This document shows, in pieces, positions 147 to 63,619 of a stretch of DNA of 64,000 bases (positions are counted from its first letter, which is position 1; each line of letters opens with the position of its first letter). The DNA lies in the IMG/VR virus record IMGVR_UViG_2671180676_000004, positions 1-64,000 of that record; one strand, 5' to 3'. Made by a program: the position numbers and the translations under genes. The notes beneath the pieces were generated by a model that was given only the letters and a program-made list of their open reading frames with translations, made no database searches and was not told the DNA's origin. The stretch is from a virus (taxonomy: Duplodnaviria; Heunggongvirae; Uroviricota; Caudoviricetes).

Positions 147-210
147 AGCCTGCTTCTGTATATATAAATAACTACATATTAATTATTAATATACGGAAGC
201 AGGCTGTTTT
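147..210 (+). terminator. Hairpin H copy 1, intrinsic-terminator-like
   Basis: Arms 147-163 / 190-205 (agcctgcttctgtatat … atatacggaagcaggct) with one T·G wobble, AT-rich loop, then GTTTT. Confidence 0.55.
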
Positions 211-310
211 GTATCAGAGACTCCAGACCTGAACATCACTACAGAATCCACTAGAACCCCTTCCCAGACGCTTTAAAATCGATTTTATGAACCACTTTAA
301 GGAAACCAAC

Positions 311-541
311 ATGTCATACCCGACTAATGTCGTTGCGCTCGTAGAGAGCGATTTTCTGGCCCAGGCTCGTGAAATGATGAAAGATCGTGAGCAGGCTTTC
401 AACTTGTACGAATGGGCAATTAAGTGCTTGCATCTTGGCGAGCATCGCGAACTTGTTGAACAGCTTTTAGGTGAGTTGATCAATGAGGTGTTTGCCTTGA
501 ATGTTCAACTACATGGTAGAGAAAATAATCAATCACAATGA
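311..541 (+). CDS. Hypothetical small protein (76 aa)
   Basis: ATG 311 preceded by AAGGA; track ORF 287..541 trimmed to the SD-supported start. Confidence 0.45.
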   Translation: MSYPTNVVALVESDFLAQAREMMKDREQAFNLYEWAIKCLHLGEHRELVEQLLGELINEVFALNVQLHGRENNQSQ

Positions 542-1126
542 TAGATAAGTACAAACTATTCATAAAGTGAATTGTAAGTGCTAAGATCTGATAGTTTCCA
601 GTCGTAGACTGGAGACTCGACCTGATGGGTGGGGGTAAGCGTCACTGGCGTCAGGTTTAAAAAAGCTCACTACCAGCGTAGAACTGGTGCCGTTTAGGTG
701 TCGGGGAAGGGGGAACCAAAGTGAGCGGAGACAAGGGTCACTTTATGATTGTCGAGTCTGGGGTGTTTCGAGAGGTTGAATCCAGTACTCCCCTTCATAA
801 AGTGTGGGAAGATCTCGGTTCTGGGGTGCTGTCATCCATAACTTCCCAAGTCTAAGCTGGCAGTAGACTTAGACCATAACTTTTCAGGTTATGAAACGAC
901 CAGGTTGGTGAGGGATTTTTATACTCACCTCCCTGGGAGAGTATTACCTGAAAAGACAACCTCTCACTTCGTTCGAGGTGAACTTCACTCACTTCGTTCG
1001 TTCAGTTCAGGTTTATAAAAACCTGTTCTGGGAAGTAATTTGTTTATTTTAATAATTATTAACACGCACGCGTGTGCGCACGCGCGAGGAAAAAAAATCG
1101 GCGCGGCGCTTGATTCAGGAGTTTAT

Positions 1127-1720
1127 ATGACGACGAAGACACCAGCCCGATCGCAAGAAAAAACTCGCAAAAAAGCCAAAAACAAAAATTCTCCCCGCAC
1201 CAATTCCACAACGCCTGTCGTAGAGTTCAATCCCCAGCTTAAAACCGTGAAAATCTTCAGTGATGGCTCTTGCCTTAAAAATCCGGGTGGCCCGGGCGGT
1301 TACGGTATAGTTCTCCAGTATCGTGGTGAGGAACGCGAGTTCTCAGATGGTTTTCATAGCACCACCAATAACCGCATGGAGATGATGGGGGCACTTATCG
1401 GGCTGGAGCGTTTGAAATATCCATGCAACGTTATTTTGCACTCTGATAGCCAGTATCTGAAAAACGGCATGACACAGTGGATGAAATGGTGGAAACGCAA
1501 TGGATGGGTGACTTCTGACAAAAAACCGGTAAAGAATGTTGATCTGTGGAAGCGTCTGGATGAGGCTGCAAGTCGACATAATGTTCGCTGGAAGTGGGTT
1601 AAAGGTCACGCCGGGCATCGTGAAAATGAAATATGTGATCGACTCGCGAAGATCGCAGCTTTTTCCGCAGCAGATATGCCTCACAAGAAAGATATTGGTT
1701 TTGTTTACAACAAGCAGTAA
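1127..1720 (+). CDS. RNase HI-family ribonuclease with basic N-terminal extension
   Basis: Aligns by eye to E. coli RnhA; catalytic D/E/D/D positions retained ([29 protein letters not shown]); SD CAGGAG before ATG 1127. Confidence 0.85.
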
Positions 1721-1737
1721 GTAAGTGTTTACCTATC
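1718..1737. repeat. Motif B copy (taagtaagtgtttacctatc)
   Basis: Near-identical to the copy at 63701-63720. Confidence 0.5.
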
Positions 1738-1865
1738 ATTTTAAATCATGTATCTTATCGGCGTCAGGATGACAATGTGTCGGTAAGACACAGTTCCAGG
1801 ATGGAACGAGAAAGGCGGCTGGCAATCGCCAGCCGCAACTCTTTCTGACACTGGATGGAGTCCAC

Positions 1866-2360
1866 ATGGCACGTCAAACCTATTTCACTTCTGCAACTAA
1901 ACGTCCTCGTTCACTACGTCAAATTTTGGCCGAATTATTTAGCGGTCGTGTTCTGTCACGTCTTGATGAACTAGAGACTGCCGTTCGGTTGCTGAATGAA
2001 CGTTTAGATAAGCAAGCGTCAGTTGTTGCGAACGTGGGGGCGATTGTTACCTCTGGTTCTTCACGCGAAGCGAAAAGTACACGGCCTTTAGTGAAGGAGA
2101 AAAACAACAAGGACAGTTCGAATGGAAAATTTTCAAAGAAAGAGGCTGAAACCAATGGCCTACGTTCTCATTATAGTTTCACTGGCGACGGTAGCCGTTC
2201 CAGCCGGCCAGAGCCTTTTGATGCCGGGTTCATCCATCACCACACCTCCGTCGACGACAATTACCACCACTCCAGTAGAGCGTCCTGTCACTCTGGATGG
2301 GATGACGGTGGATGCGATACCTCAAGTTCATCCAGTTACTCAGGATCATGCTGTGACTAA
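1866..2360 (+). CDS. Hypothetical protein; C-terminal half may be out of frame
   Basis: N-terminal 85 aa protein-like; C-terminal part low-complexity while overlapping frame 2122..2373 encodes a TM/Thr-Pro-rich segment. Confidence 0.3.
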   Translation: MARQTYFTSATKRPRSLRQILAELFSGRVLSRLDELETAVRLLNERLDKQASVVANVGAIVTSGSSREAKSTRPLVKEKNNKDSSNGKFSKKEAETNGLRSHYSFTGDGSRSSRPEPFDAGFIHHHTSVDDNYHHSSRASCHSGWDDGGCDTSSSSSYSGSCCD

Positions 2361-2369
2361 GGCGGTTGT

Positions 2370-5545: not shown

Positions 5546-8500
5546 CTATATCTGCCCACCTACTCCTTTGAACTTTTCAATAAACGTGACGATTTTCTGG
5601 AAAACCGTCTGTTTTTTCGTTTTATATTGCGGGTTTAACGGACTAAGTTTTGGTAATGTCTCGTTTAATTCTGTGCCATTTTCGGTGGCGTATTCGCGTT
5701 TTAAAGACGTGCGAATATAGCGTTTCGCCGCCTCTTCATTGAGATTTTCTTCTTTAATCAACGCTTCTGCTTCACGTAGCTGTTCGTGTTGAGCAAAGGT
5801 AAAGAACGCGTCAATGATGCTGGCTTTGTCTGGTAAATCATCCAGGTTCGTTTGCTGAATAAAATCGACCACCAGGCCCTCTTTAGCACGGTTCCCTAGG
5901 CTTGAACGAATTAAGCGTTTGACCTCTTCGATCATTTCGCCCTTGCCTTTATTTTGTCTGTTGTGTTCGAAAATCAGTCCAAGGATATAATCCAGGTTTA
6001 TTTCCTGAGACTTCAGCAAATCGACCTCAAAAACTACGTCATCCCAGTCAGTGGTTGATTTCTCTTTTTTCTCAGCTTCTTTCTCACGGCGCTGCCAGTC
6101 GCGAATATCGTTATAGGCAGAACGATAATCCTGAATCTTGCGATCAGCAGGGAGACGAATTGTTTGCAATTCAGCGAACTTTTCATCATCCACATAATGT
6201 TCTGCTTTGAATTTTTCTACCGCAACAGGATCGCTAAGATCGATTTGTTGCAGGGCTTTTAGCGTGGCAAATTCATCATAGTTTTGCAGGATGTTCTCGG
6301 CACGCAGGTATTCGCCAAACAGTTTAACGAAGTCTTTCTTCTCTTTTTCACTTTCAATACTGGCAGGGTCAGGGAACCGTTGTTCCAGTTCTGAAACTAC
6401 TGCCATAAAGCCGCGTTTAGCTTCACCTGTAGCAGCATCAGTAAAGCCTTCCATATACTCTGCATAACTCTTTTCTAACACTACATTTTTGGTGTTTTTG
6501 TCACCAAACAGCGTTATGGCATCGATGGTTGAGCGTTCCAGATCGCGGAAAGTGACGATATTACCGAAGGTTTTAGTCGCGTCATAAATGCGGTTGGTAC
6601 GGGAAAATGCCTGCATCAGGCCGTGAAAACGCAAGTTTTTATCGACGAATAGCGTGTTTAATGTTGGAGCATCGAAGCCGGTTAAAAACATCCCCACGAC
6701 GATTAACAAGTCAACATCCTGATTTTTAACCCGCTGAGCCAGGTCCCGATAGTAGTTCTGAAAACCCTTGCTATCAGTGCTGAAATTCATTTGAAAATGG
6801 TCGTTATACTCACGAATTGCAGCGTCCAGAAACTCTTTAGCACTGCTGTCCATTGCACTGGTATCAAAAGATTCATCGGATATTTCACCAATGGCATTTT
6901 GTTCTTCATTAGCGGCAAAGGAGAAGATTGTCGCAACACGCAGTGGTTTATAGGTAGCAGATTTATTAGCTGCTTCCTCTTGTAACCGTTTAAACGTCGC
7001 GTAATAGGCTTTCGCGGCATCCACGCTGCTCACTGCCAACATAGCATTAAAACCTTTTGAGCCAGGGAAGGTACGGTGGGTTTTCTGGCGGAAATTATTC
7101 AGAATATATTGCGTGATTTCCTGAATACGCATGGGATGAAGAAACGCCTGCTGATTTTCAGCCGCACTCAGTTTTTTCTCGTCAGTTTCTGTCTCTAAAG
7201 ACTTAAACTGTGGCCGCACATCGTTGTAGTCCACCTTGAATTTGAGCACTTTTTCGTCACGAATCGCATCGGTAATTACATACGAATGCAATTCACGACC
7301 AAATACGCTGGCGGTTGTTTCTGAGCCTAAGGCGTTTTCCGGGAAAATAGGGGTGCCGGTAAAACCAAACTGATAATAACGTTTGAATTTCTTCTTCAGG
7401 TTTTTCTGCGCTTCTCCAAACTGGCTGCGGTGGCATTCATCAAATATAAACACCACTTGCTGATTATATACAGGCAGGTCGCTTTCTGCTTTCATCAGGT
7501 TATTGAGTTTCTGAATAGTAGTGACGATAATTTTGTTATCGTCCTTATCCAGATTTCGTTTAAGGCCTGCGGTATTTTCCGAGCCGTTGACGCTGTCTGG
7601 CGAAAAACGCTGATATTCCTTCATGGTCTGGTAATCGAGGTCTTTCCTGTCGACCACAAAGAAGACTTTATCAATAAAGTCCAGCTCTGTTGCCAGACGC
7701 GCGGCTTTAAAGCTGGTGAGGGTTTTACCAGAACCGGTAGTGTGCCAGATATACCCACCGCTTTCCGGTTTTGACCAGTTCTTCGCTGTAAAGGAACTCT
7801 TAATTTTCCACAGAATGCGCTCGGTGGCGGCAATCTGGTACGGTCGCATCACCAGTAGCGTCTGACTACTGTCAAAAACGCTGTAGTTCACCAGAACATT
7901 CAGCAGAGTATGTTTCTGGAAAAAGGTAGCGGTAAAGTCTTTGAGGTCTTTAATCAGCGTGTTGTCTGATTTCGCCCAATTCATGGTGAAGTCAAAACTG
8001 TTTTTATCGCGCTTTGTGGTGTTGGCAAAATAACGGGTATCAGTGCCGTTGGAAATGACGAACAGCTGCAGATACTTAAACAGGGAATTTTCGCTGTTAA
8101 AACTCTCTTTACTGTAACGATGTATCTGGTTGAAAGCCTCACGAATCGCCACCCCGCGTTTTTTTAGTTCGATTTGCACCAGCGGTAAACCATTAACCAG
8201 GATCGTGACGTCATAACGGTTAGCATGAGAACCCGTCTGTTCAAACTGCTGGATAATCTGCACCTTATTGCGCATGAGATTCTTTTTATCTATCAAATAG
8301 ATGTTCTCAAGTCGCCCGTCGTCAAAAATAAAGTCGCAGATATAGTCGATATGGATTTTACGGGTTTTATCCAGAATACCATCGCTGGGGTTGTCCAGAT
8401 ACTGCTCCGTGAAGCGCCGCCACTCGCTGTCATTAAACATCACACCATTGAGGCTCTGAAGCTGTTCCCGAACATTGGACAGCATTGCCGACTGTGATTT

Positions 8501-8662
8501 TACGGAAATAAATTCATAACCCTGATTCCGCAGGTCCTGAATCAGTTCACGTTCCAGGTCCGATTCGCTCTGGTAGCTGTCGCTTGTTTGCTCAGCTTTG
8601 ATGTACTTATCAAGGACGATAAAGTTATTGGATTCAGCAATGGTGTGTGTTTGATGAGTCAT
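5546..8662 (-). CDS. hsdR: Type I restriction enzyme R subunit
   Basis: 1038 aa; SF2 motifs TGSGKT and DECH ([10 protein letters not shown]); directly downstream of hsdM-hsdS. Confidence 0.9.
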
Positions 8663-8784
8663 AGCGCATCCTTTGTGCCGCCTGGCAAGAGCCGGAAGGG
8701 CGTTAAGAGTGACTTCCGGCGCGTAAAAAAATAGTCTATATACTGACCGGGTGTTAAGGTGGCCCGATCGGTAGCAATGGTCAA

Positions 8785-10023
8785 TTAATTACTGACAGTT
8801 TCAGGTTTCGGGAAACTGAACAGTAAATCACGGTAGTATTCGTATTGTTTCTGGCGCAACTCGATTTCACGCGGGAGACCTTCGGTGATGGAGTTGGTCA
8901 GGGTGTCGAATTTATCGAGCAGAGCAGATATTCGCTCTTGTTTCTGTTTATCAGGCAATGGCACTGGTAATGTTTTTATAATATCTGCATTCAAGTTACT
9001 GACCGACCCGCTATTGATTTTACTTTCCCAATAATTTTTCACCTTTTTTGATGAAAGATAGTGATACAGATAATCAGCATTTAATTTTTCACCAAAATTG
9101 CTGATTGATGCCCATCCATCATGGATAGCTCCGGTTATCCTTAAAATATATGGTCTGCCAAAGCTCATAGAGTTAGAAATGACGAAATCACCGGGGTTCA
9201 AGATTCGCGATTTTTGGGCACCCTCTGCAGTTATTTTTTGTAAGGTTTTGTCAATGTATTTAGAGCCGGGGATAGTATCTCCGATTTTAATCCATGGGAT
9301 ACCATTTCCTTGTTCAGTAAGATAATTAACAATTGGCCTGGGGGATGCCCCACGTTGTATTTTGGCTACTTCTCCCAATGCCTTCCACTCAACCTCACCC
9401 TCTTTAAAACTCAGCAACTGGTCGCGATAGTAGTTGTACTGTTTTTTACGCATGTTAAGCTCAGCGGTAAGCTCAGCGGTAAGTGCAGTAAACTTATCCA
9501 GAATCCGAACAATTTCAGACTGGATGGCAAGGGATTTTCCCGGGGCGCTGGGACAAGGGATGGGTATTTGATAGTTTAAAATTGCATCTTTACTGCCTCG
9601 AGGCATCTTTGCCCCTTTAGCGTGCTGCATACTGTAAGAAAAAAATGAATCCGACGATAATGCATAGTAGAGATATTCTGGACTAATAATTTTTTTACAG
9701 TCTGCTAAAATGCGTATAGCAAGGACATCACCACTGCACCCGCCATTATTCTCCGCCATCCAAACTTTCTTTAAATATGGGCGAATATTACCTAAAAGAA
9801 TATCACCTGGCTCATAGGCAGTTAAACGTGCCGTATTAGGCTGATAGGTGGCGTCAATGCGACCGCCTTTATCAGCAAGGAGATTATCAACGCCAACGAA
9901 TGAAGTGGCATCAAGTTTATCAGCATCAACTTTGGTTGTTGAATACCCGGCGATATCGCCCACTGCTTTCCACTCAACCTCAACCCCATCCAGCAATTTT
10001 TCCAGATAACTCAACTCGCTCAT
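8785..10023 (-). CDS. hsdS: Type I restriction-modification specificity subunit
   Basis: 412 aa with two target-recognition halves, each ending in a conserved coiled spacer (…[16 protein letters not shown] / …[16 protein letters not shown]); overlaps hsdM by 4 nt. Confidence 0.85.
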
Positions 10024-11582
10024 TTCTGCACCTCGCAGCCTTCAATTTCAGCCACAATCGCATCAATATCTTTACGCAACTGGTCGATTTTGCTGACCGT
10101 GGTTTTCAGCTCTGCATTCAACTCAGCGATATCGATAATTTCGCGAGTATCTTTCACTTCAACATAGCTGCTCACCGACAGGTTATAGTCATTAGCAACA
10201 ACAGTCTCAAACGCAACAGATTTCGCCAGATGAGCAACATCTTCCTTGCTGGCAAATACCTGCATAATTTTTTCTATATGGGCATCGGTCAGAATGTTGT
10301 TGTTAGTCTCTTTTTTGAACAGTTCGCTGGCATCAATAAACTGAACTTTGGTATCCGTTTTATGTTTAGACAGCACCAGAATATTGACGGCAATGGTGGT
10401 GCCAAAGAACAGGTTCGGTGCCAGTGAAATCACGGTTTCGACATAGTTATTGTCAACCAGATACTGACGGATTTTCTGCTCCGCGCCGCCACGGTAAAAA
10501 ATGCCCGGGAAGCAGACAATCGCAGCACGACCTTTGGCAGAAAGATAGTTCAGCGCATGTAATACAAACGCAAAGTCAGCTTTGGATTTGGGGGCCAGAA
10601 CGCCAGCCGGGGCAAAACGTTCATCGTTAATCAGCGTCGGGTCATCGCTGCCAATCCATTTCACCGAATACGGCGGGTTAGAAACGATGGCATCAAACGG
10701 TTTTTCATCTCTGAAGTGCGGCTCAGTCAGCGTATTGCCCAGCTTGATATCAAACTTGTCGTAGTTGATGTTGTGCAAAAACATGTTCATACGCGCCAGG
10801 TTATAGGTCGTATGGTTGATCTCCTGACCGAAAAAGCCTTCTTCGATGATGTGGTCATCGAACTGCTTTTTCGCCTGCAACAACAGCGAACCGGAACCTG
10901 CTGCCGGGTCGTAGATTTTGTTAACGTGGGTCTGGCCGTGCATTGCCAATTGTGCAATCAGCTTAGAGACGTGCTGCGGTGTAAAGAACTCGCCGCCTGA
11001 CTTACCAGCATTCGCGGCATAGTTAGAAATCAGGAACTCATAGGCATCGCCGAACAGGTCAATCTGATGTTCGTTGAAGTCACCAAGTTTTAACCCTTCA
11101 ACCCCTTTCAGAACCGCAGCCAGGCGGGCATTTTTATCTTTAACGGTGTTACCCAGGCGGTTACTGGTGGTATCGAAATCAGCAAACAAACCTTTGATGT
11201 CAGCTTCTGAAGGATAACCGTAAGCAGAACTTTCGATAGCAACGAAGATGCTGTTTAAATCTGCGTTCAGTCTGTCATTGGTATTTGCTTTCGCCGCTAC
11301 GTTGCAGAAAAGCTGACTGGGGTAGATGAAGTAGCCTTTAGTTTTGATGGCATCGTCTTTAATGTCATCAGTAATTACGCTGTCATCCAGTTTCGCATAA
11401 CAGATACTGTCATCACCGGCTTCAATATAGCTGGAAAAATTTTCGCTGATAAAACGGTAGAAAAGTGCGCCCAGAACGTATTGCTTAAAATCCCATCCAT
11501 CGACCGAACCCCTGACATCGTTAGCAATTTGCCAGATTTGACGATGAAGCTCTGCACGTTGTTGAATACTTGTCATTTTCAT
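10020..11582 (-). CDS. hsdM: Type I N6-adenine DNA methyltransferase subunit
   Basis: 520 aa; SAM motif [10 protein letters not shown] and catalytic NPPYS. Confidence 0.9.
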
Positions 11583-11706
11583 CCACTTATTTCAGGCTTA
11601 TGTAATTGGCGGTGATTCTACAGCAACTTGGATGCTTTAGCAGTTCGGACATTAGGCAACGAATGACCTAATTAGAGCTTTTTGGAAAAGCGGTATTGTC
11701 GGTGCG

Positions 11707-11931: not shown

Positions 11932-12114
11932 CGCAGGTTGGCTTTTTACATCTTGGGCCGAATACTGATTCCGCGCTAAGTTGTTTGTGCGGAAGTGACA
12001 CTGTGGAGCTTAGAAATAGTAAATACTGGTGGGCAACAAATTGAGCCTTCACACGCTCACCAGCACACACAAAAAATGGTTAAACAGCAAGGGAATTAAT
12101 ATCTCATCGCGACA

Positions 12115-12252
12115 TTAAATAAGCCAGCGCACGCCTCTGTTTATCACTGACTTGAAAAACCATATCAGAACCACGATGAAGACAATCGCCAGCACTTGGC
12201 TAAGAACAGGCGCATTTAAAAATGCACTTAGAAACTGAAAAAATACAATCAT
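12115..12252 (-). CDS. Small hydrophobic peptide (45 aa), type I toxin-like
   Basis: Not in ORF track; minus-strand ATG at 12252-12250 with SD GAGGA; product MIVFFQFLSAFLNAPVLSQVLAIVFIVVLIWFFKSVINRGVRWLI. Confidence 0.35.
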   Translation of the reverse strand: MIVFFQFLSAFLNAPVLSQVLAIVFIVVLIWFFKSVINRGVRWLI

Positions 12253-12708
12253 CAGGGTAATCCTCGTCTAATGTAAAGCTGTGTGCTCTCACGTTGACGT
12301 AGAAACCCAACCTCTATATAGTTGGATTCGGTGAAAGAAAGTCGTTAACGTGAACTTACGGCACATGTTTTCGGTATAAAAATCAGGGAACTGTGAATTC
12401 CTTGATGTAGTTGGGGCCTGTAATGCAGGCCCTATCTATTAATGTCATGATTACATCTCAAATTTTCTCCTTATCATTATTATTTAATAAAATTCAATTA
12501 ATATAATATCCATTTCCTGTGTGTGCAAACACAGTATGAGGAAAATGGCCCCGTTGCAAGTGCATAACTTTGTGGATAACTCTGAAGGCGAATTTACATT
12601 TCGGCGCACCGCAAGCCAGATAAGCTGTGCGCAAAAAGCAATGGGGTGAGAAAAAAACTTTGAAGATATTGCGGCGACTAAATAATAGCCGTTATTCAAT
12701 TATTCTGG

Positions 12709-12972: not shown

Positions 12973-13070
12973 CGCGCCACCAGGCGAGCGCAAAGCATCG
13001 CGCTATTGCACACTTCAAGCATCTTTAATGTATACTGTATGGATAAACAGTACTCTGAGGTGAAAACGCT

Positions 13071-14597: not shown

Positions 14598-14754
14598 CCC
14601 GTCTCCTTTATTTTAATTTGCGCAATTGTCGCCTTGTAGTGTACTCCAGCTACGACATTTAATCATTTATGAGAAATGCTGTTATCACATGGCAGACATA
14701 AGGCCATTTTGTTACTATCAAGCCCCTTTTCACTACAAAGAAGTAATGCCTACT

Positions 14755-23006: not shown

Positions 23007-23013
23007 CTCGATT

Positions 23014-53444: not shown

Positions 53445-56400
53445 ATGTGGTACAGGGAAGGTACTATCACATTTACACAGGGTAGCAATACTCTGGTTGG
53501 GGCAGGGACAGCCTGGAACGTAACAGCTAATGGTGTGTTGCCGGGGATGATCGTCATTGGCCCCGACAATAAGCTGTATGAGATCAAGCGCGTAATAAGC
53601 GATACGAATATTGTTCTCTCAGAACCTTATACCGGCGAAACTCAGTCTGAGGTTCCGTGCCGAATCATTACGACCTATGAAGGCGACTTAACACAGTTTA
53701 GCGCGCGCTTTACAGCACTAATGTCGCGTATGTCGGCTGATTCCAAGTCTATGCGCAGTTGGTTGACTGCTCTGGATGAGGTGACAATCGAGCGTGAAGA
53801 CGGTACAGAAGTAACCGTTAAGCCGCTAATGCAGATCGTCAACGAGCACAACGAAAACGTTGAGTGGTATAAAAATAACACTGACGCGATTGATGCTGCT
53901 GGCGACAAAGCTCGTGAGGCGGCGGCCAGTGCTGCCGCAGCAGCAGAAAGCGCCAATACCGCTGGAGAAAAAGCCTCTCAAGCGTCTCAAAGTGCATCCG
54001 CTGCGGCATCCTCACAAAGTGCCGCAAGTGCGAGTGCAACTGCTGCGAAAAAATCTGAAACGAATGCCGCAGCGTCACAACAATCAGCAGCCACTTCTGC
54101 ATCCACCGCGACCACGAAAGCGTCAGAAGCTGCCACCTCAGCCCGGGATGCGGCGGCCTCAAAAGAGGCAGCGAAATCATCAGAAACGAGCGCAGCCTCG
54201 AGCGCCAGTAATGCCGCTTCCTCGGCAACGGCGGCAGGAAATTCCGCGAAGGCGGCAAAAACGTCCGAGACGAACGCCAGGTCTTCTGAAACGGCAGCGG
54301 GACAGAGCGCCTCGGCTGCGGCAGGCTCAAAAACAGCGGCTGCGTCGTCTGCCAGTGCCGCGTCAACAAGTGCCGGGCAGGCCTCAGCCAGTGCCACCGC
54401 CGCCGGAAAATCGGCAGAAAGTGCCGCATCGTCTGCTTCAACAGCCACAACGAAGGCTGGCGAAGCCACTGAACAGGCCAGCGCAGCAGCGAGGTCTGCT
54501 TCCGCAGCGAAGACATCCGAAACGAACGCGAAAGCGTCGGAAACCCGTGCAGAATCCTCAAAAACGGCAGCCGCATCGTCCGCCAGTTCGGCAGCGTCAT
54601 CGGCATCATCGGCGTCTGCTTCAAAAGATGAGGCGACCAGACAAGCGTCCGCAGCGAAGGGCAGCGCCACGACAGCATCCACGAAAGCAACAGAGGCGGC
54701 AGGCAGTGCGACGGCAGCATCTCAGAGCAAAACTGCTGCTGAATCCGCTGCGACCCGTGCGGAAGCTGCTGCTGATCGTGCTGAAGAGATTGCCGGTGCA
54801 GTTGCGATGGAAGATGCAAGCCTTACCACCAAAGGTGTTGTGAAACTTAGCAGTGCTGTCGACAGCACCAGTGAATCTTTAGCCGCGACACCAAAAGCAG
54901 TTAAGACCGCATATGATAATGCTGAAAAACGACTACAGAAGGATCAGAATGGTGCTGATATCCCCGACAAGGGCCGCTTCCTGAATAACATTAATGTTTA
55001 CAGCAAAGGTGAAGTGGATCAGAAAAAGGGGATGCGATACGTTGTGGTCAATGCCCCGGCGGGTGTCCAGGAAGGTAAATATTATCCGTTAGTGATAAAA
55101 AGGAATGACAGCCATCGGGCATCCCGCGTTGTCATTTCAACGCCAAGTCGCACAGCTAATCACAGAATGAATAACTGTGAGTTTAATGGTTTTGTTTGCG
55201 CAGGCGGCTGGACGGACCGGGGTAGCTATGCCTGTGGTATGTTCTGGGCTTATTCATCATCGGAACGCGCTATTCATTCCATTCTGATGAGTAATAAAGG
55301 CGATACCGTAGACAGCGTATTCTATATAGAAGGTGGGGCATTTCCCGTAGAGGTCTTTTTAGAAGAAGGACTTTCTGTTACTGCTCCTGCTTCTGATTAT
55401 GTTGTTGCTGAAACGACTTATAAATTTGGCGCAACTGATCCTTATTCTGAATCAGTTGCGGTAAATTTAATTTTAGATTTTAAACAAGGTAATGGATTTT
55501 ATAGTTCGTATCCTGTTTTGAGTAAGTCAGACATTAGCGGTAATAAGGTTTACGCTAATGATGAAGTTATTGTCCGTAGTCAGAATGCGTTAAGGATGAT
55601 TGCTGGCGATTACGGTGTCATATGGCGAAATGATGGAGCAAATACTTACTTGCTCATGACTGATAAAGGCGACCAGTACGGTGGCTGGAACGGTCTTCGA
55701 CCATTTGCAGTAAATAACGCAACAGGTGAAGTGACGATCAATACACCACTTAATTCTCCAAAAGGGGTTAAGGGGAACTCTGATACAGCTACGAAACTTC
55801 AGACTGCAAGAAAAATATCCGGTGTTCCATTTGATGGCTCTACTGATATCACTTTAACCGCCGCGCATGTTGCCGCTTTCGCAAGAAGAGCAACAGGGTC
55901 ATATGCTGATGCTGATGGCGGCGTGCCGTGGAATGCTGAATCTGGTGCTTATAATGTAACTAGAACGGGCGACAGTTATATTCTTGCCAACTTTTATACT
56001 GGTGTAGGTAGTTGCCGTACGCTTCAAATTAAGGCTCACTATAAAAATGGTGGGTTGTTTTATCGTTCATCTCGCGATGGAAGTGGTTTTGAAAGTGGTT
56101 GGGAGCAGGTTTACACGACTGGATTTAGACCTCAGCCGGCTGATATAAACGCACCAACCGCTGCCGCCGGATGGTTAAATAGTGGTAACGGAACAGCATT
56201 TACGACTGCTCAGTTTATAACGTGGCTAAATAATCAGGGTGCATTTTCAAACAAATATTGGATTGCACGGTGCTCATGGACTTACGCCAACAATAATTAT
56301 ATAGACGACACTGGATGTGGCAGGATCGATCTATCTGGTTCCGTGATTGAGGTGTTTAGTAATAAGTCAACAAGCCACTACACTATTCGTGTTACAACGA

Positions 56401-57734
56401 CAACAACATCGGGCCATGGTGGTGTTAATAATGCGGAGTTTATTTATGTGTACAATGGCAGTGATTACTCGCCAGGCTGGCGTCGTTCTTATAATACTAG
56501 AAACAAACCAACAGCTTCTGATGTAGGAGCATTATCGCTTTCTGGAGGAGCGTTAACTGGCGGATTAACTGCTGCTGGCGAGATTATTTCAAAATCGGCG
56601 AATGGTCTGCGCATTGCCTACGGAAACTACGGATTCTTTATCCGAAACGATGGTTCAAGCACATACTTCATGTTGACCGATTCGGGTAACAGCCTGGGAA
56701 CCTATAATAGTTTAAGGCCGCTTATCATTAACAATGCCAATGGTGCTGTTAGGATCGGTAATGGACTCAATGTTACTGGCGGCATCAATGGTAGTTTGGA
56801 CGGTAATGCTTCAACAGCTACGAAGTTGCAAACAGCGAGAAACATCAATGGTGTTAAGTTTGATGGTTCAGGCGATATCAATATTAATACATTGGTATCT
56901 CGTGGCCGAGTTACGGCGTTAAGCGGCTCTACTCAAGGCACTGCTGGCATTCAAATGTATGAGGCGTACAACAATAGCTACCCGACCATGTATGGCAACG
57001 TATTGCACATGAAAGGTGCGAGTGCTGCTGGTGAGGGAGAGTTGCTTATTGGCTGGAGTGGTACGAGCGGTGCACATGCGCCAGTTTTCATTCGCTCACG
57101 AAGAGATAACACAGGTGCGGCATGGTCAGCGTGGGCGCAGGTATATACCGCTAAGGATTCAATCCCTGGTGTGAATACAACTGGTAATCAGAACACTACT
57201 GGTAATGCCGCAACCGCCACAAAATTGCAGACAGCAAGGAAAATTGCTGGTGTGGCATTTGATGGCTCTGCCGATATAACTTTGACTGCGGCTAACCTTA
57301 ATGCTTACACGAAAACAGAGGTAACAAACCTTCTAAGTTCCTATGTGAAGAGCAGTGCTCTTCCAAGCATGACTGTGCGAACTTCCTCTGTTTCAGGTGG
57401 GGATATGGGCATGAGCTTGTCCGCATTCATTAGCCACCTAAAATCAAATGGGGCGTTTAGCAAAAGTTATTGGATTGGCTTTGGCGATGCTATGGGATTC
57501 AATGCTGGCAGTATCAACAATATAACGGGATTTGGTGCTGTAGAATTAGCAGAATCTATAATCGAAGTTTTTAATCTACCTAACGGTGATTATACAATTC
57601 GTTTAACAACGTCACATAAAGCTGACTACGGTGGAGTTACAAACGCAATCCTCGTTTATCACTACCGTAGTAATAGAAGTCCGTCAGGTCAATGGCTGAA
57701 ATTTGCAGGTACTGTTGGGGCAACAAGTAACTGA
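53445..57734 (+). CDS. Side tail fibre protein
   Basis: 1429 aa; long Ala/Ser-rich segment; fibre motif ATPKAVKTAYD; three ATKLQTAR(K/N)I.GV.FDGS.DI repeats. Confidence 0.8.
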   Translation: MWYREGTITFTQGSNTLVGAGTAWNVTANGVLPGMIVIGPDNKLYEIKRVISDTNIVLSEPYTGETQSEVPCRIITTYEGDLTQFSARFTALMSRMSADSKSMRSWLTALDEVTIEREDGTEVTVKPLMQIVNEHNENVEWYKNNTDAIDAAGDKAREAAASAAAAAESANTAGEKASQASQSASAAASSQSAASASATAAKKSETNAAASQQSAATSASTATTKASEAATSARDAAASKEAAKSSETSAASSASNAASSATAAGNSAKAAKTSETNARSSETAAGQSASAAAGSKTAAASSASAASTSAGQASASATAAGKSAESAASSASTATTKAGEATEQASAAARSASAAKTSETNAKASETRAESSKTAAASSASSAASSASSASASKDEATRQASAAKGSATTASTKATEAAGSATAASQSKTAAESAATRAEAAADRAEEIAGAVAMEDASLTTKGVVKLSSAVDSTSESLAATPKAVKTAYDNAEKRLQKDQNGADIPDKGRFLNNINVYSKGEVDQKKGMRYVVVNAPAGVQEGKYYPLVIKRNDSHRASRVVISTPSRTANHRMNNCEFNGFVCAGGWTDRGSYACGMFWAYSSSERAIHSILMSNKGDTVDSVFYIEGGAFPVEVFLEEGLSVTAPASDYVVAETTYKFGATDPYSESVAVNLILDFKQGNGFYSSYPVLSKSDISGNKVYANDEVIVRSQNALRMIAGDYGVIWRNDGANTYLLMTDKGDQYGGWNGLRPFAVNNATGEVTINTPLNSPKGVKGNSDTATKLQTARKISGVPFDGSTDITLTAAHVAAFARRATGSYADADGGVPWNAESGAYNVTRTGDSYILANFYTGVGSCRTLQIKAHYKNGGLFYRSSRDGSGFESGWEQVYTTGFRPQPADINAPTAAAGWLNSGNGTAFTTAQFITWLNNQGAFSNKYWIARCSWTYANNNYIDDTGCGRIDLSGSVIEVFSNKSTSHYTIRVTTTTTSGHGGVNNAEFIYVYNGSDYSPGWRRSYNTRNKPTASDVGALSLSGGALTGGLTAAGEIISKSANGLRIAYGNYGFFIRNDGSSTYFMLTDSGNSLGTYNSLRPLIINNANGAVRIGNGLNVTGGINGSLDGNASTATKLQTARNINGVKFDGSGDININTLVSRGRVTALSGSTQGTAGIQMYEAYNNSYPTMYGNVLHMKGASAAGEGELLIGWSGTSGAHAPVFIRSRRDNTGAAWSAWAQVYTAKDSIPGVNTTGNQNTTGNAATATKLQTARKIAGVAFDGSADITLTAANLNAYTKTEVTNLLSSYVKSSALPSMTVRTSSVSGGDMGMSLSAFISHLKSNGAFSKSYWIGFGDAMGFNAGSINNITGFGAVELAESIIEVFNLPNGDYTIRLTTSHKADYGGVTNAILVYHYRSNRSPSGQWLKFAGTVGATSN

Positions 57735-60503: not shown

Positions 60504-61172
60504 ATGACCAAGATCTTTGTGGTTGGCGGCACAAAGGGCGGGCCTGGCAAATCCACCGTTGCCCAGCAAATTGCCGTTTGCCTGAAAGTCAAAAAGAAGA
60601 AGAAGGTTTATATTACCGATATAGATATTCAGCGCACGACAACGAGCTGGTGTGAAGACCGTCGACAGAACGAAGACCTTGAGCTGATTCCTTTTGCATA
60701 CGTTCAGGATGACATCATTAAGCACCTAAAATCGCTTCAGGGTAGAGCTGAGTTTGTAGTGGTAGATGCTGGTGGCTTCGACTCCGAAATTCAGCGACAA
60801 GCGATGCTGATGGCTGACGTTATCATTATCCCGCTGCGTCCTAAGCGTCGTGATTTGAAATCTTTACGTGACATCGATCCTATTATCGACAATGTTCGCA
60901 ATGTAAACGATAAAGTGAAGGTCCGCGCGGTCATGAACCAGTGCCCGGCTTTGCCATCACAAGTGTCTCGCATTCTGGCGGCTAAAGAGATTGTCGAGAC
61001 GTTTGGCATCGAGTCTGCGCCAGTCAATCTATATAACCGCAACGTCTACGATGATGCGGAAGAGTCTGGTCGTTCTATCTTCGAAATGACCGGTAGCGAG
61101 CGCGACAAAAAGGCGGAAGCCGAGTTTGAAGAATTTGTAGATTATCTGTTGAGTCTGGAGGAAGAAGAATAA
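60504..61172 (+). CDS. ParA/MinD-family partition ATPase
   Basis: Deviant Walker A GGTKGGPGKST. Confidence 0.75.
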   Translation: MTKIFVVGGTKGGPGKSTVAQQIAVCLKVKKKKKVYITDIDIQRTTTSWCEDRRQNEDLELIPFAYVQDDIIKHLKSLQGRAEFVVVDAGGFDSEIQRQAMLMADVIIIPLRPKRRDLKSLRDIDPIIDNVRNVNDKVKVRAVMNQCPALPSQVSRILAAKEIVETFGIESAPVNLYNRNVYDDAEESGRSIFEMTGSERDKKAEAEFEEFVDYLLSLEEEE

Positions 61173-61531
61173 TGTCCATGAAAATGGGTGACCTAGCAAA
61201 GCGCAAAGAGCCTGATGCACCGGCTAAGAACACAACTCCTTTGCGCCAACCAGTCAGACCACAAGGACGCCCGACTCGTGGCAAAGAGAAAATTAAAAGC
61301 CGCACCATGTCACTGGAAGACGAATACTTCGAGCTTCTGGAAATGATGAAGTTTATCCCTCGTTTCGAGAAGTTCACCCGCTCTGATGTGATTCGTGCTG
61401 CTATTTTCCATCTGGCAGAGAAGTCGCCGCAGGAAATCGAGGATATCGTGAAACTTAACGAGGCGATCACTGCTGCCGACGTCACGATGCGTACCGATGA
61501 AATCAAACGCGAGTTGATGAAGAAAGGTTAA
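61172..61531 (+). CDS. Small partner protein of the ParA-like ATPase
   Basis: 119 aa; basic disordered N-terminus then helical domain; ATG overlaps parA stop. Confidence 0.45.
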   Translation: MSMKMGDLAKRKEPDAPAKNTTPLRQPVRPQGRPTRGKEKIKSRTMSLEDEYFELLEMMKFIPRFEKFTRSDVIRAAIFHLAEKSPQEIEDIVKLNEAITAADVTMRTDEIKRELMKKG

Positions 61532-61538
61532 TTTTATT

Positions 61539-61563
61539 GAGGTGCTGCTTGGCACCTCTTTCT
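61539..61563 (+). terminator. Intrinsic terminator
   Basis: gaggtgc-tgcttg-gcacctc + TTTCT. Confidence 0.7.
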
Positions 61564-61575
61564 ATAGGTTCCCTA

Positions 61576-62295
61576 ATGCTCTACAAATATATTGGAAGTG
61601 AAGATTCGCAAAAAGTGTTACGTAACCTCAAACGGTTTGTAGAGGACGGCACTATCTCTGCTAGCGCACCTTCTTCATTCAACGACCCATCAGAGTTCAA
61701 AGTTTCGATAACGATGGGAGGTACAGAAGTGGAGCGCCGGAAACACTTTGAAGACAATGGATGTAAGGATTTTTCCTTTGAAGACTGGGATGCTGTAGCT
61801 CCTGAAGCTGCAAAATCGTTGGCTGTGGATTTGCGGAAAGAATCATTAGGGGCTTTTGGTGTGGTGTGCTTGTCACCAAACGAAGATAACATCTTGATGT
61901 GGTCACATTACTCAGTGTCGCATAAAGGTTTCTGCATAGGCTTTGATGATGATTTTGTTACCTCTATTGAGGGGTATCACAGCTTTGATAATGTGAAATA
62001 TATACCTTCTGTTCCCGTGTTCGATGAAGTTACAGATGAGTTTAAGGTACTTTTTGATAAGCTCTTTTTCTACAAGCACGAATGCTGGAAATATGAGGAA
62101 GAACAAAGGGTTATTACTAAAAAAATAGGCGCTCAGGCATTTGATAAGAAATATATTAGAGAGATCATTCTTGGACATAACGTTTCTCCTGAAGTAGAAG
62201 AATATGCCCGGACACAGCTAGACACGAGCATCGAGGTTTACAAAATGAGTACACCTGATGATGGTTATCTTCTTGTCAAAGAAAAGCTGAAGTAG
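61576..62295 (+). CDS. DUF2971-like protein
   Basis: Starts MLYKY…; motifs SFNDPSEF and MWSHYS as I recall for DUF2971. Confidence 0.5.
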   Translation: MLYKYIGSEDSQKVLRNLKRFVEDGTISASAPSSFNDPSEFKVSITMGGTEVERRKHFEDNGCKDFSFEDWDAVAPEAAKSLAVDLRKESLGAFGVVCLSPNEDNILMWSHYSVSHKGFCIGFDDDFVTSIEGYHSFDNVKYIPSVPVFDEVTDEFKVLFDKLFFYKHECWKYEEEQRVITKKIGAQAFDKKYIREIILGHNVSPEVEEYARTQLDTSIEVYKMSTPDDGYLLVKEKLK

Positions 62296-62361
62296 CTCCA
62301 GACTTTCCTCAAATGATTATGTTGGGCGCTTTTCTTATTGAACTGGTTAGTGAGGCTAATA

Positions 62362-63534
62362 ATGGATTTGTTCTCAACCAAAATAGCAAAAAACAAGCTG
62401 CACGAATCTTTTAAACAGATTTATCAAGATAATACATATGCTCCAGTAAGAGAAGTGATACAGTCGTGGGGGCGTGGGTTACTGGAGCGTAGCGGTGAGC
62501 AGACTAAATTCGTTAAAGAGTTTCAGACAACCTTCAATTCCGCCTTATGGGAATTGTATCTGAACGAAATGTTTATTCGTCTCGATTATTCTGTCGACTA
62601 CACAAAAGACAGTCCCGATTTCTGTGTTACTACACCGTCAGGCTACCAGTTTAACGTCGAAGCTGTGATATCAGATCGGCCACATAATCCACCTGCAGGT
62701 GCTCTTTTTAGCGAATTAAAATTCAAACATCAATCAACGCTAAAATTAATCGGAAAAATCAAAGACAAACATGATCTTTTTACAGGAGTTAATGGCAAAA
62801 AATTCCCGTACTCTACGATGTCTCATGTAGTTAATAAGCCGTTTGTTCTGGCGCTTGCACCCTTTGACTCCGATTTATCATTGTCTCAAAATAACACAAT
62901 CATCAATCGAGTGTTGTTTGGCATTGAGGAACCTACCACCAGAAATTTGGTGACTGGCAGCCAAACTAAAGTTACCTCAATCAAAAAGAATGAAGACGTT
63001 GAAATTCCATTAGGTATATTTACTAACGACTCATATAAAGAAATAAGTGCGGTTATTTTCTCCACCACCGGCACTTTTGGAAAAGCCGTGGTTCAAAGCG
63101 GTATCGGTAGATATGTAAGGTCAACACGATATCGAGCCATTGATGTGAATGATTTCATCGCCAATGAAGGGATGAAAAACGAGGGAAAGCACACACAAAG
63201 GATAGGACCTGATCATTTCATCACTACATATCGGCATTTTTTAAATAACGAAGTCACTGGTGCGGATATTGTAGTTTGTCATTCCACTGCTCATGAAGAG
63301 ACGCACTTTGACGGCCTTCATATTTACTACAATCCTTTTGCGACAGTGCCACTGGACAGAAATATTTTCTTCCCCCCAGAGATAACTCATAATTTTTACG
63401 ATATGGAAAAAGAACAGTCTGTTCAGAATCATCCTGATGGAGCGCTGGTATCTAGACAGGTTTTTGAACCAACTAGAGCACATTTTAGGTATATCATGAA
63501 ACATTGGTTTCCAGGCTTTCTAAAAGATGTTTAA
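62362..63534 (+). CDS. Hypothetical protein (about 390 aa)
   Basis: ATG 62362 with SD GAGG; track start 62338 is TTG; followed by hairpin H3. Confidence 0.5.
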   Translation: MDLFSTKIAKNKLHESFKQIYQDNTYAPVREVIQSWGRGLLERSGEQTKFVKEFQTTFNSALWELYLNEMFIRLDYSVDYTKDSPDFCVTTPSGYQFNVEAVISDRPHNPPAGALFSELKFKHQSTLKLIGKIKDKHDLFTGVNGKKFPYSTMSHVVNKPFVLALAPFDSDLSLSQNNTIINRVLFGIEEPTTRNLVTGSQTKVTSIKKNEDVEIPLGIFTNDSYKEISAVIFSTTGTFGKAVVQSGIGRYVRSTRYRAIDVNDFIANEGMKNEGKHTQRIGPDHFITTYRHFLNNEVTGADIVVCHSTAHEETHFDGLHIYYNPFATVPLDRNIFFPPEITHNFYDMEKEQSVQNHPDGALVSRQVFEPTRAHFRYIMKHWFPGFLKDV

Positions 63535-63556
63535 GCATCCTGCTGGTTGAATTTGG

Positions 63557-63619
63557 AACCTGCTTCTGTATATAAATACTAAGTTACTTATTATTATTTA
63601 TACGGAAGCAGGTCTTTTT
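63557..63619 (+). terminator. Hairpin H copy 3, intrinsic terminator
   Basis: acctgcttctgtatataaata … tatttatacggaagcaggt, same T·G wobble, then TTTTT. Confidence 0.6.

Follow-up and report, generated by a model that had tools for sequence, protein, structure and literature searches.

The stretch of DNA analysed here (the window, 64,000 nucleotides) belongs to an SSU5/pHCM2-type phage-plasmid from E. coli and is 97% identical to the Escherichia phages CMS-2020a and Cyrano. Three copies of a hairpin, predicted earlier from the sequence, are indeed present, all on the + strand and spaced by 30,754 and 32,656 nt. Copy 1 lies 25 nt past the stop codon of an adenine methyltransferase gene; copy 2 lies 25 nt past a gene for an 88-aa winged-helix protein and 118 nt ahead of the terS start codon; copy 3 lies 25 nt past a PD-T7-5 defence gene and 121 nt ahead of the first gene of the replication module. 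The features are:

131–227, + strand: extended palindrome of copy 1 (−41.6 kcal/mol, z −6.3)
149–203, + strand: core hairpin of copy 1, CCTGCTTCTGTATAT ... ATATACGGAAGCAGG (−29.1 kcal/mol, z −5.6)
206–214, + strand: T-run 3′ of copy 1, GTTTTGTAT; orthologues keep CTGTTTT or CTTTTT
221–269, + strand: direct repeats of the CYCCAGAM box 3′ of copy 1, CTCCAGAC at 221–228 and TCCCAGAC at 262–269
30881–30979, + strand: extended palindrome of copy 2 (−50.6 kcal/mol, z −10.4)
30903–30957, + strand: core hairpin of copy 2 (−30.8 kcal/mol, z −8.8)
63540–63638, + strand: extended palindrome of copy 3 (−35.0 kcal/mol, z −4.8)
63559–63612, + strand: core hairpin of copy 3 (−24.2 kcal/mol, z −6.2)
63613–63621, + strand: T-run 3′ of copy 3, TCTTTTTCT; nearly all orthologues keep TCTTTT
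63632–63638, + strand: CCCAGAC box of copy 3, within its extended palindrome

The 15-mer CCTGCTTCTGTATAT has three exact matches on the + strand, and its complement is found on the − strand with one or two mismatches. When up to three mismatches were allowed, nine matches were obtained, as compared with 1.5 ± 1.3 in shuffled sequences, and none of 100 shuffles reached nine. A stem of 15–17 bp is common to all three copies, as had been proposed; the predicted core comprises a 17-bp stem, a 3 × 1 internal loop and a further 5–7 bp. RNA from the + strand is predicted to fold at −24 to −31 kcal/mol for the cores, with z values of −4.8 to −10.4 over cores and extended palindromes, and the sense transcript therefore contains the stable GC-clamped stem-loop expected of an intrinsic terminator.

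Each hairpin proved to be the core of a 100–120-nt imperfect palindrome, whose flanking TCTGG/CCAGA boxes are able to pair. From the outside in, the element consists of a 5–8-bp ‘box’ helix, a variable spacer of 12–19 nt on each side, the 15–17-bp GC-clamped stem, whose pair 9 is U·G, and an upper stem rich in A and T. In copy 1, TCTGG-GTCT (131–140) pairs with AGAC-CCAGA (218–227), enclosing the core; in copy 2, GGTCTGGG (30881–30888) pairs with CCCAGACC (30972–30979); and in copy 3, CTGCTGG..GAA..TTGG (63540–63556) pairs with CCAA..TTC..CCAG (63626–63635). The distance from box to stem is roughly fixed, while the sequence of the spacer is not conserved; in copy 2 of the Klebsiella plasmid pJN2-26, for example, hairpin and boxes are retained and the spacers have diverged. 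The sequences 5′ of copy 3 are unrelated from one element to another, but most of them can still pair with the downstream box. CCCAGAC follows every copy (at 263, 30972 and 63632), as originally noticed, and five of the nine such 7-mers on the two strands of the window lie within ∼110 nt of a hairpin. Around copy 1, an inverted copy of the CYCCAGAM box lies inside the methylase gene (61–67), and SSU5 has three of these boxes in 60 nt.

Other details of the original prediction fared unevenly. Copies 2 and 3 have a loop palindrome of the TAAGTAAC type, which copy 1 lacks. Two copies were said to end in a T-run, and these are copies 1 and 3, whose U-rich tracts are GUUUUGUAU and UCUUUUUCU, respectively; copy 2 is followed by CTTAATAAG with no T-run, and the U-run is absent from copy 2 in every lineage. 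That copies 1 and 3 flank apbC–metG is uninformative, as they are 63 kb apart with most of the window between them.

Cyrano, SSU5 and pHCM2 each carry three copies, and no more, at the same junctions: 3′ of the adenine methylase gene, 5′ of terS and 5′ of the replication module. Yersinia pestis pMT1 retains copy 2 only, the regions of the other two having been lost. The element was found in 801 PLSDB plasmids from at least seven genera and in 259 of 5,426 complete E. coli genomes, where it occupied one to three places per plasmid and none on the chromosomes. In none of the PLSDB plasmids and E. coli genomes with a match is it annotated, and no Rfam family reached the gathering score in the window, the hits below threshold being miRNA-precursor look-alikes only. 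With this distribution, fixed junctions and no target duplications seen, identity with REP/BIME elements or MITEs was rejected. We conclude that the three hairpins are one previously undescribed palindromic element, positioned at the same module junctions in hundreds of related plasmids.

The T·G mismatch had been taken to argue for selection on an RNA structure or an asymmetric protein site rather than a DNA cruciform. In the window, T on the 5′ arm faces G on the 3′ arm at stem pair 9 in all three copies. Across the family this pair is common but not universal: the 31 distinct sequences have T·G in 22, and T-A, C-G and C·A in three each. The stem is essentially invariant in Escherichia, Salmonella, Klebsiella, Enterobacter and Yersinia, and consequently the covariation expected of homologues does not appear within the E. 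coli/Salmonella/Klebsiella lineage. It does appear between distant lineages. Moellerella, Pectobacterium and Xenorhabdus have the same junctions with a different stem, in which the base pairs covary; across lineages the stem base reads CCTGC/GCAGG, CCTAG/CTAGG, CCGCG/CGCGG, CCGTG/CACGG or CCTTG/CAAGG. Two Pectobacterium copies within one genome differ at one pair, with compensation in each, and all three Pectobacterium hairpins have U·G at the same pair despite their different stem sequence. For Xenorhabdus, the predicted fold did not reach significance (z −1.35). The sense fold was the stabler in 12 of 18 hairpins, and all seven main-stem wobbles place U on the 5′ arm opposite G on the 3′ arm of the sense strand, the antisense equivalent being A·C. 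The element is a selected structure and not a chance repeat.

A further explanation would make the element a palindrome with no function of its own, neutral or selfish: either a small repeat or a recombination ‘linker’ where modules join, with gene conversion and quasi-palindrome correction keeping the copies alike. Palindromes can self-correct via template switching. The three copies do bracket variable cargo regions, and at its left edge copy 3 adjoins at least eight unrelated sequences in different elements. Nevertheless, the three orthologous junctions are fixed even where the stem sequence has been replaced, and the absence of copies on chromosomes or elsewhere and of target-site duplications also argues against such an origin. 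Furthermore, the loops are copy-specific and persist as such across genera, indicating that copies are not homogenised by conversion. We regard this explanation as very improbable.

It had been claimed that each copy follows the last gene of an operon. This holds for the window, and a co-directional gene precedes the copy at all three sites in the window, Cyrano and SSU5; it fails in pHCM2, Moellerella and Pectobacterium at copy 3, where the gene immediately 5′ is on the opposite strand, so that no co-directional unit ends there, which counts against a terminator. Published RNA-seq of the LF82/Cyrano lysogen gives values per gene rather than per nucleotide and is informative at copy 3 alone, across which expression falls by 20-fold to >1,000-fold from CYRAN_30 to CYRAN_31. 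CYRAN_28–30 had log2(fpkm+5) values of 5.7–10.8 in all five conditions, while CYRAN_31, the first gene past copy 3, had 2.3–4.2 (zero corresponds to 2.32). At copies 1 and 2 the data are uninformative or show only a 3–5-fold drop. Within the 194-nt gap at copy 3 of Cyrano no second terminator-like site was seen, and the hairpin dominates the predicted fold.

Our preferred reading, to which we assign a probability of about 45%, is that the three hairpins act in the sense-strand RNA as boundary terminators and belong to one family-specific element. Transcription of the + strand would make the element the tail of the upstream unit, and a long RNA hairpin formed there would stop or attenuate RNA polymerase where one gene module meets the next. 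The parA operon and the defence cargo ahead of copy 3, which are expressed in the plasmid state, would thereby be kept from reading into the lytic modules. Copies 1 and 3, with hairpin and U-run, would be intrinsic terminators, the hairpin itself causing the drop at copy 3, and copy 2, between the ParB-like/ATPase operon and terS, would be a leaky version. The nearly unchanging stem sequence, together with the boxes, suggests that an additional, family-encoded factor also recognizes the element.

Several observations sit poorly with a plain terminator. A simple terminator scan called none of the three copies, their loops and internal loops exceeding its limits. A plain terminator needs no invariance of the stem across genera, and the lack of a U-run at copy 2 also counts against termination. 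In addition, lone half-elements, each a box with a 5′ arm and no partner, occur in Moellerella and Pectobacterium; they are conserved between the two genera and bear the lineage-specific clamp. Together with the invariant arms and repeated boxes, these make a protein site at the DNA level a serious rival, although we consider it unlikely. A DNA-binding protein of the family would read arms and flanking boxes on double-stranded or cruciform DNA, the RNA hairpin being a by-product; candidate readers are the 88-aa winged-helix protein and the ParB_N pair next to copy 2, TerS, and the 246-aa protein after copy 3. Such sites could be operators or silencing sites, entry points for packaging or replication, or dispersed centromeres. 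In keeping with this, the arms are invariant over the 801 plasmids while adjoining spacers diverge, the boxes keep a near-constant distance from the stem, and direct repeats of the box lie 3′ of copy 1. In copy 2 of the distant clade, 3′ arm and box are perfect and the 5′ arm has decayed. Hairpin energy is nearly equal on the two DNA strands, making a cruciform possible, and an AT-rich centre between inverted sites is found in several viral origins, P1 pac and parS. However, a role in DNA only predicts neither the sense-strand asymmetry of wobbles and energies nor the drop in expression at copy 3. These two observations favour a hairpin in the sense-strand RNA. Other late-region terminator hairpins are equally conserved between the window and SSU5, so conservation alone is weak evidence.

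A broader version, which we find doubtful, holds that the palindromes are cruciform-capable organizing sites in the DNA, and not (only) terminators, read by a co-evolving family protein. The site would be arm plus box, single or as an inverted pair, dividing the 108-kb genome into three functional domains, and it could serve in loading of a ParB-like clamp, in starting lytic or recombination-dependent replication, or in starting packaging. The suggested involvement of ParB is weakened, because both ParB_N genes lie in an operon (CYRAN_119–122) that is at background in the lysogen and because no parS is similar to the site. The ParB_N genes ahead of copy 2 are without a ParA, the partner in the ParA operon is a 119-aa non-ParB protein, and the ParB-like proteins are short, with no DNA-binding domain identified beyond ParB_N. 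Identity with parS was rejected, the 15-bp arms, about 25 bp apart, being unlike TGTTNCACGTGAAACA. A LexA box (CTGT-N8-ACAG) was likewise rejected; the half-site-like CTGTATAT and ATATACAG/ACGG are ∼25 nt apart. The idea of a packaging boundary has also lost ground: its sole basis is that the SSU5 and Cyrano GenBank records open inside the copy 2 loop, and a unique pac or cos site is not expected three times.

Another alternative, which we judge improbable, is a composite of terminator and start: the 3′ arm together with the downstream box would be the conserved region where the next lytic operon begins, as an unconventional promoter and 5′ leader, and the 5′ arm would stay complementary to it, so that read-through RNA from upstream folds back, terminates and shields the start region. 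In Moellerella, Pectobacterium and Xenorhabdus, terS and the gene for a 76-aa protein have their start codons only 45–55 nt past the 3′ arm (TATAAATAC-TATGGGAGC), which leaves no space for another promoter, and the box forms a small hairpin in the leader, covering the ribosome site. The 3′ arm is conserved better than the 5′ arm, every stem wobble pairing a drifted U on the 5′ arm with a conserved G on the 3′ arm, and TACTAT followed by GGGA resembles the −10 element and GGGA discriminator of a sigma-70 promoter. However, the arm is 100–120 nt from the start codon in the E. coli lineage, with other promoter- or operator-like motifs intervening; no sigma-70-like promoter was called at any arm, the annotation showed neither a phage RNA polymerase nor a sigma factor, and the lone half-elements would face away from the direction of the genes. 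That the lysogen leaves CYRAN_31 and CYRAN_1 silent is neutral with respect to a lytic promoter.

Phage-plasmids of the SSU5/pHCM2 type are common: ∼5% of complete E. coli genomes harbour them, as do many isolates of Klebsiella, Salmonella and Enterobacter, and pMT1 of Y. pestis derives from them. Their cargo serves defence and resistance, and their regulation is essentially unstudied. The element marks three joints between late, replication and accessory modules, and so offers a handle on how plasmid-state genes and cargo avoid firing lytic operons, and on the limits of the cargo slot, where the PD-T7-5 defence gene directly abuts copy 3. If it is also a protein site, it would point to an organizing factor new for this family. 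It can also serve as a practical sequence marker of the family.

Comparison with known systems shows partial likenesses. Like lambda cos or P1 pac, copy 2 is symmetric and directly 5′ of terS, with further repeats between, and two GenBank records open inside it; unlike them, there are three copies per genome, and the terminase is T4/headful-like by Pfam. The sopC-like inverted repeats that serve as dispersed centromeres of N15, a linear phage-plasmid, and the KorB operators of RK2 are 13–16-bp palindromes bound by ParB proteins that have a helix-turn-helix and are expressed in the plasmid state. The element shares with these a few identical palindromes at operon boundaries and the presence of ParB-family genes, but its arms are about 40 bp apart, in the lysogen its ParB_N genes stay silent, and a type Ib ATPase with the 119-aa partner is the true ParA of the family. 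REP/BIME and ERIC sequences are also short imperfect palindromes 3′ of genes, single or in inverted pairs and lineage-specific in sequence, which often double as terminators or stabilizers; the element differs in numbering only three copies, confined to orthologous junctions that are fixed within one plasmid family, with none chromosomal, and no associated transposase was seen. The RNase III hairpins of T7 (R0.3–R18.5) and lambda sib likewise include, in long phage transcripts, several similar irregular hairpins of 50–60 nt between genes, and the predicted fold of the element offers the near-continuous helix of >20 bp (RNase III sites need at least 20 bp of double-stranded RNA) and the small asymmetric internal loop. 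Host RNase III, however, needs no lineage-specific stems, and two copies are terminator-like, leaving cleavage by RNase III as a candidate only. Compared with the intrinsic terminators that insulate phage modules, the element has a much longer stem (∼24 bp in its core and ∼100 nt in all) whose upper half is AT-rich, uses one sequence three times, invariant across genera, and has inverted flanking boxes and one copy lacking a U-run; it shares with them a GC-clamped stem-loop after a co-directional gene, a U-run in two of three copies, and the collapse of expression over copy 3 in the lysogen.

The window is a 64-kb piece of an SSU5/pHCM2-type phage-plasmid of Escherichia coli. Its first 25 kb are 97.4% identical to CMS-2020a, 96.9% to Cyrano/pLF82 and 94.9% to PhiR41_1 (all Escherichia phages), and Salmonella phage SSU5 is ~80% identical over the genes in common. 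Gene order was taken from the annotation of Cyrano (OV696614), which is resident in strain LF82:

up to 124: 3' end of an adenine methyltransferase gene
after the methyltransferase gene: accessory region with small genes, a type I restriction-modification operon, a umuD-like gene, a MinD/ApbC-like ATPase gene and metG
after the accessory region, minus strand: regulators and a UvsW-like helicase
27687-30878: operon for two ParB_N proteins, an ABC-type ATPase, a 296-aa protein and an 88-aa winged-helix protein
from 31075: late operon, running from terS through tail fibres to lysis
between the late operon and the parA operon: toxin-antitoxin pair
60504-63534: type Ib parA operon with cargo
from 63733: first gene of the replication module

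Within the accessory region, the restriction-modification operon (5546-11669, minus strand) matches its counterpart in the P1-like phage-plasmids phi456 and vB_EcoM-673R5 at 95-96% identity, and the umuD/humD-like region (12058-13460) shares 83% identity with P1; these segments are thus cargo common to two distinct phage-plasmid families. The stretch 13497-16788 holds the MinD/ApbC-like ATPase gene (minus strand) and an entire gene for methionyl-tRNA synthetase, in agreement with the Cyrano annotation.

The repeated hairpin of the original prediction exists at three module junctions, always on the plus strand:

149-203, plus strand: copy 1
30903-30957, plus strand: copy 2
63559-63612, plus strand: copy 3

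The 15-nt arm (one strand of the stem) occurs exactly three times, and its complement matches at one or two mismatches. When up to three mismatches were allowed, nine matches were found against 1.5 expected, a number reached in none of 100 shuffles, and all three copies are predicted to fold much more stably than their shuffled counterparts (z -5.6 to -8.8). The T-runs described for two copies follow copies 1 and 3 and are absent from copy 2, and CCCAGAC lies 14-58 nt downstream of every copy, as had been noticed. This motif is found nine times in the whole window, where ~8 are expected, and five of the nine adjoin a hairpin; CCAGAC and ACGGAAG likewise show no general enrichment in the window and are special only beside hairpins. 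The TAAGTAAC-type loop palindrome, ascribed to all the loops, is present in copies 2 and 3 and missing from copy 1.

A larger imperfect palindrome is centred on each core, in which an upstream TCTGG-type box pairs with a downstream CCAGA box and encloses one variable spacer on each side, giving predicted structures of ~100 nt. The folds of these extended palindromes reach -50.6 kcal/mol for copy 2 (z -10.4), -41.6 kcal/mol for copy 1 and -35.0 kcal/mol for copy 3. Comparison with Klebsiella phage pJN2-26 showed that boxes and hairpin are conserved, while the intervening 12-15-nt spacers have diverged. Downstream of copy 1 the box is also directly repeated. Folded as single-stranded DNA, the two strands are of similar stability, so that a cruciform is physically possible.

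Several known signals were considered at these sites and rejected. On the plus strand TATAAATA is confined to the three hairpins and so does not behave as a general late-promoter signal of the T4 type; no sigma-70 promoters were called at the arms; resemblances to a LexA box, an IHF site, a Ter site and a loxP-like core were by eye only, and none met consensus; and a Chi-like GCTGGTGG in certain upstream flanks was inconsistent from copy to copy.

Cyrano, SSU5 and pHCM2 each carry exactly three copies, after the methylase gene, before terS and before the replication module, and Yersinia pestis pMT1 has kept only the terS copy, the other two regions being lost. In Cyrano (OV696614) the sites fall around 31159-31225, 78084-78150 and 108342-108379/1-60. 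A BLAST search of PLSDB with the 57-nt core matched 801 plasmids, of which 798 aligned along the entire core, nearly all at 88-100% identity, from Klebsiella, Escherichia, Enterobacter, Yersinia, Salmonella, Citrobacter and Cronobacter; 760 of the 801 are non-mobilizable, sizes among those listed are ~95-160 kb, and no annotated features underlie the matches. The element is present in 259 of 5,426 complete E. coli genomes, always on plasmids and never on the chromosome. A 15-mer scan of IMG/VR returned chiefly chance matches and recovered ~40 genuine loci; a scan of genome contigs with TATGGGAGC N{8,30} CACTGCGG gave chance matches only, the pattern being too degenerate. No Rfam family matches the element. 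The arm sequences were not found in the literature within our reach, outside which lay several subscription papers on pHCM2, SSU5 and D6, nor did we find anything there on SSU5 termini, palindromes or hotspots. With that caveat we treat the element as undescribed so far.

Thirty-one distinct sequences were collected from the E. coli/Salmonella/Klebsiella lineage and oriented by their flanks, and 26 of them were aligned. The stem is essentially invariant, each pair except one being shared by 24 or more of the 26, and invariant pairs are uninformative for or against pairing. The exception is the ninth pair, where a T opposite G, seen in all three window copies as reported, had been taken to be a kept feature: T·G is indeed the common state (22/31) without being universal, the remainder being T-A, C-G and C·A (three each). 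Perfect C-G is found in SSU5 copy 2 and in pHCM2 copies 1 and 2, T-A in Cyrano copy 3, and a sense-strand mismatch in SSU5 copy 1 and one IMG/VR element. The pair immediately outside the stem covaries (A-U in 13, G-C in 6). Loops are copy-specific, and persistently so across genera, showing that the three copies have not simply been homogenized. As a calibration, other late-operon terminators compared between the window and SSU5 retain 65-92% intergenic identity with stems intact; since ordinary terminators are equally well kept, conservation alone is weak evidence for more than a terminator role, and its value as proof of protein recognition is correspondingly weakened.

The neighbouring genes of the Cyrano lysogen can be compared through per-gene RNA-seq values for strain LF82 in five conditions (PMC9928086, S1 Table; public LF82 RNA-seq, GEO GSE154648). 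There, log2(fpkm+5) is 5.7-10.8 for the parA operon (CYRAN_28-30, with CYRAN_29 as the ParA partner) and 2.3-4.2 for CYRAN_31 (phrog_2500), the first gene past copy 3, where 2.32 corresponds to zero (PMC9928086). In these gene-level values expression thus drops ~20-fold to >1,000-fold over a 194-nt gap, in which no strong structure and no terminator candidate was found other than the hairpin (Cyrano 31159-31211, then TCTTTT). Across copy 2 the drop, from CYRAN_123 (the 88-aa winged-helix gene) to CYRAN_1 (terS), is only ~3-5-fold; both neighbours of copy 1 are at background, which makes that copy uninformative.

The ParB-like operon (CYRAN_119-122) is also at background in the lysogen, which argues against a partition or silencing role of its proteins in the plasmid state. 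GEHRWRA and GHGRREA motifs occur in the two ParB_N proteins (CYRAN_119 and CYRAN_120), which also have acidic tails; their matches are to the N-terminal, ParB-like portion of DNA methyltransferases from phages. These two genes and those for the ABC-type ATPase, the 296-aa protein and the 88-aa winged-helix protein make up a conserved five-gene block immediately 5' of terS in all lineages. Its silence in the lysogen is more suggestive of a role in packaging or the lytic cycle than in partition.

More distant plasmids, from Moellerella, Xenorhabdus and Pectobacterium, were reached through TerS homologues of 54-58% identity, and whole replicons were examined for Moellerella pNX2019-MW3 (NZ_CP129024) and Pectobacterium Drgb1 (NZ_KP942676). 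A hairpin again occupies the same three junctions, with another stem sequence:

Moellerella: CCTAGCTCCCATA / TATGGGAGCTAGG
Pectobacterium: CCGCGCTCTCATA / TATGGGAGCGCGG and variants
Xenorhabdus: CCTTGCTCCCATA / TATGGGAGCAAGG

A different box, ACACTGCGGAA, follows these hairpins, with an inverted copy upstream in several cases. Because the stems differ at equivalent junctions, the stem base covaries across lineages (CCTGC/GCAGG, CCTAG/CTAGG, CCGCG/CGCGG, CCGTG/CACGG and CCTTG/CAAGG), and in one Pectobacterium genome two copies differ at one pair, both compensated. Despite its different stem, Pectobacterium has U in the 5' arm opposite G in the 3' arm at pair 9 in all three hairpins; this polarity holds for 7/7 main-stem wobbles, and sense folds exceed antisense folds in 12 of 18 hairpins. 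Such a pattern is expected of a structure selected in the sense transcript, and to that extent it bears out the earlier argument from the wobble for an RNA structure.

The best-supported reading, to which we give a probability of roughly 0.45, is that the element is a sense-strand RNA hairpin acting as a boundary terminator or insulator. The three copies would then divide the ~108-kb genome into a part with late genes, maintenance and cargo (~31 kb), a part with replication and nucleotide metabolism (~47 kb) and a part with accessory and regulatory genes (~30 kb). Copy 3 would separate genes of the plasmid state (parA and the defence cargo slot) from the silent replication module. Copies 1 and 3 have the U-run of an intrinsic terminator, while copy 2, which never has one, may be a leaky or processing version inside or heading the packaging operon.

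A plain terminator does not explain several observations, and these keep in play a serious if rather unlikely rival, in which the element is a site read by a protein at the DNA level. Moellerella and Pectobacterium carry lone half-elements with no inverted partner, consisting of an upstream TCCGCNG box, 17-33 nt, and then GCCTAGCTCCCATAGTATTTATATAG or its Pectobacterium equivalent; their 5' arm has the same lineage-specific clamp as the hairpins of their own genome. They lie after ordinary terminators:

Moellerella NZ_CP129024: 11086, 45956 and 92712
Pectobacterium NZ_KP942676: 65266

One occupies the same junction in both genera, between a cobT-like ('porphyrin biosynthesis protein') gene and the following AAA-ATPase gene. 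At the distant-clade terS copy, a perfect 3' arm and box stand just 45 nt before the start codon, and of the 5' arm only the clamp is left; the Xenorhabdus fold is not significant (z -1.35). In pHCM2, Moellerella and Pectobacterium, copy 3 and the gene immediately upstream of it have opposite orientations. The direct box repeats past copy 1, and arms invariant across at least seven genera, are likewise left unexplained by a plain terminator, although the calibration limits what the invariance of the arms can prove. A hybrid in which the following operon would have its start region in the 3' arm and box, with the 5' arm maintained as their complement, seems to us improbable. Least credible is a purely selfish or neutral palindrome, as the positions are fixed at orthologous junctions.

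Other features lie near the hairpins or elsewhere in the window. Directly 5' of copy 3 stands PD-T7-5, an anti-phage defence gene (ORF 62338-63534, E 4.5e-139); the DUF2971 ORF beside it (61537-62295) matches the candidate PDC-S31. In relatives the spot just 5' of copy 3 is taken by at least eight unrelated sequences, which makes the interval from the parA operon to copy 3 look like a cargo or defence hotspot with the hairpin as its right edge. Two further palindromes recur upstream of genes:

2607, 3336, 16907, 19714, 20198, 21865, 30980 and 60439 (35-nt windows), with related sites at 16869 and 21114: 16-bp palindrome AGAAAACAAnTTGTTT
1718, 20619, 27669, 32961, 34468, 36388, 39963, 46464, 53383, 57860 and 63701: palindrome TAAGTAAGTAnnTACTTA

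The first, in at least eight copies just 5' of the start codons of early or accessory genes and parA, is operator-like and possibly the site of the prophage repressor; hairpin 2 and terS have at least one of these sites (30980) between them. Past the operator-like repeats and ahead of the terS ribosome site there is a GC-rich hairpin accompanied by a T-run (31035-31066; TAGAGCGCATGGACGCGCTCTG TGTGTTTTAG). It is conserved in Klebsiella pJN2-26 and could be an attenuator of the late operon. The second palindrome, usually followed by a TATAAT-like hexamer, stands just before many, mostly late, genes and occurs also in Moellerella and Pectobacterium. Late promoters of P1 combine a late operator with a -10 element, a layout that this arrangement may recall by analogy. 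The accessory region has two triplets of ~30-nt iteron-like direct repeats (ACCAACCTCT...CAGGCTACCG; 18591-18687 and 21739-21832, also 12300-12335), at a distance from the plasmid repA, which the window does not include. An inverted pair of GC hairpins (GAAAAAAGCGCCCATAGTGGGCGCT; 22984-23008 and 23485-23509) brackets a small minus-strand ORF, and internal repeats occur in the tail-fibre gene and the Ig-domain gene (55785-57318 and 37006-37355).

The GenBank records of SSU5 (NC_018843) and Cyrano (OV696614) start and end within the copy 2 loop. A true end there is one explanation; the palindrome may instead have broken the assembly, or the convention of SSU5 may have been copied. Independent support for physical ends at copy 2 was not found, other phage records being plasmid-derived or opening elsewhere, and the virome reads ERR8973296 cover Cyrano only thinly. 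We regard the element as of moderate interest, given the prevalence of the plasmid family and the possibility of an organizing site read by a protein. Identification as parS, a MITE or a unique cos/pac site failed on the defining features wherever these could be tested. In appearance the element comes closest to the reiterated RNase III hairpins of T7 or to REP/BIME-type palindromes; in its working it most resembles an intrinsic terminator.
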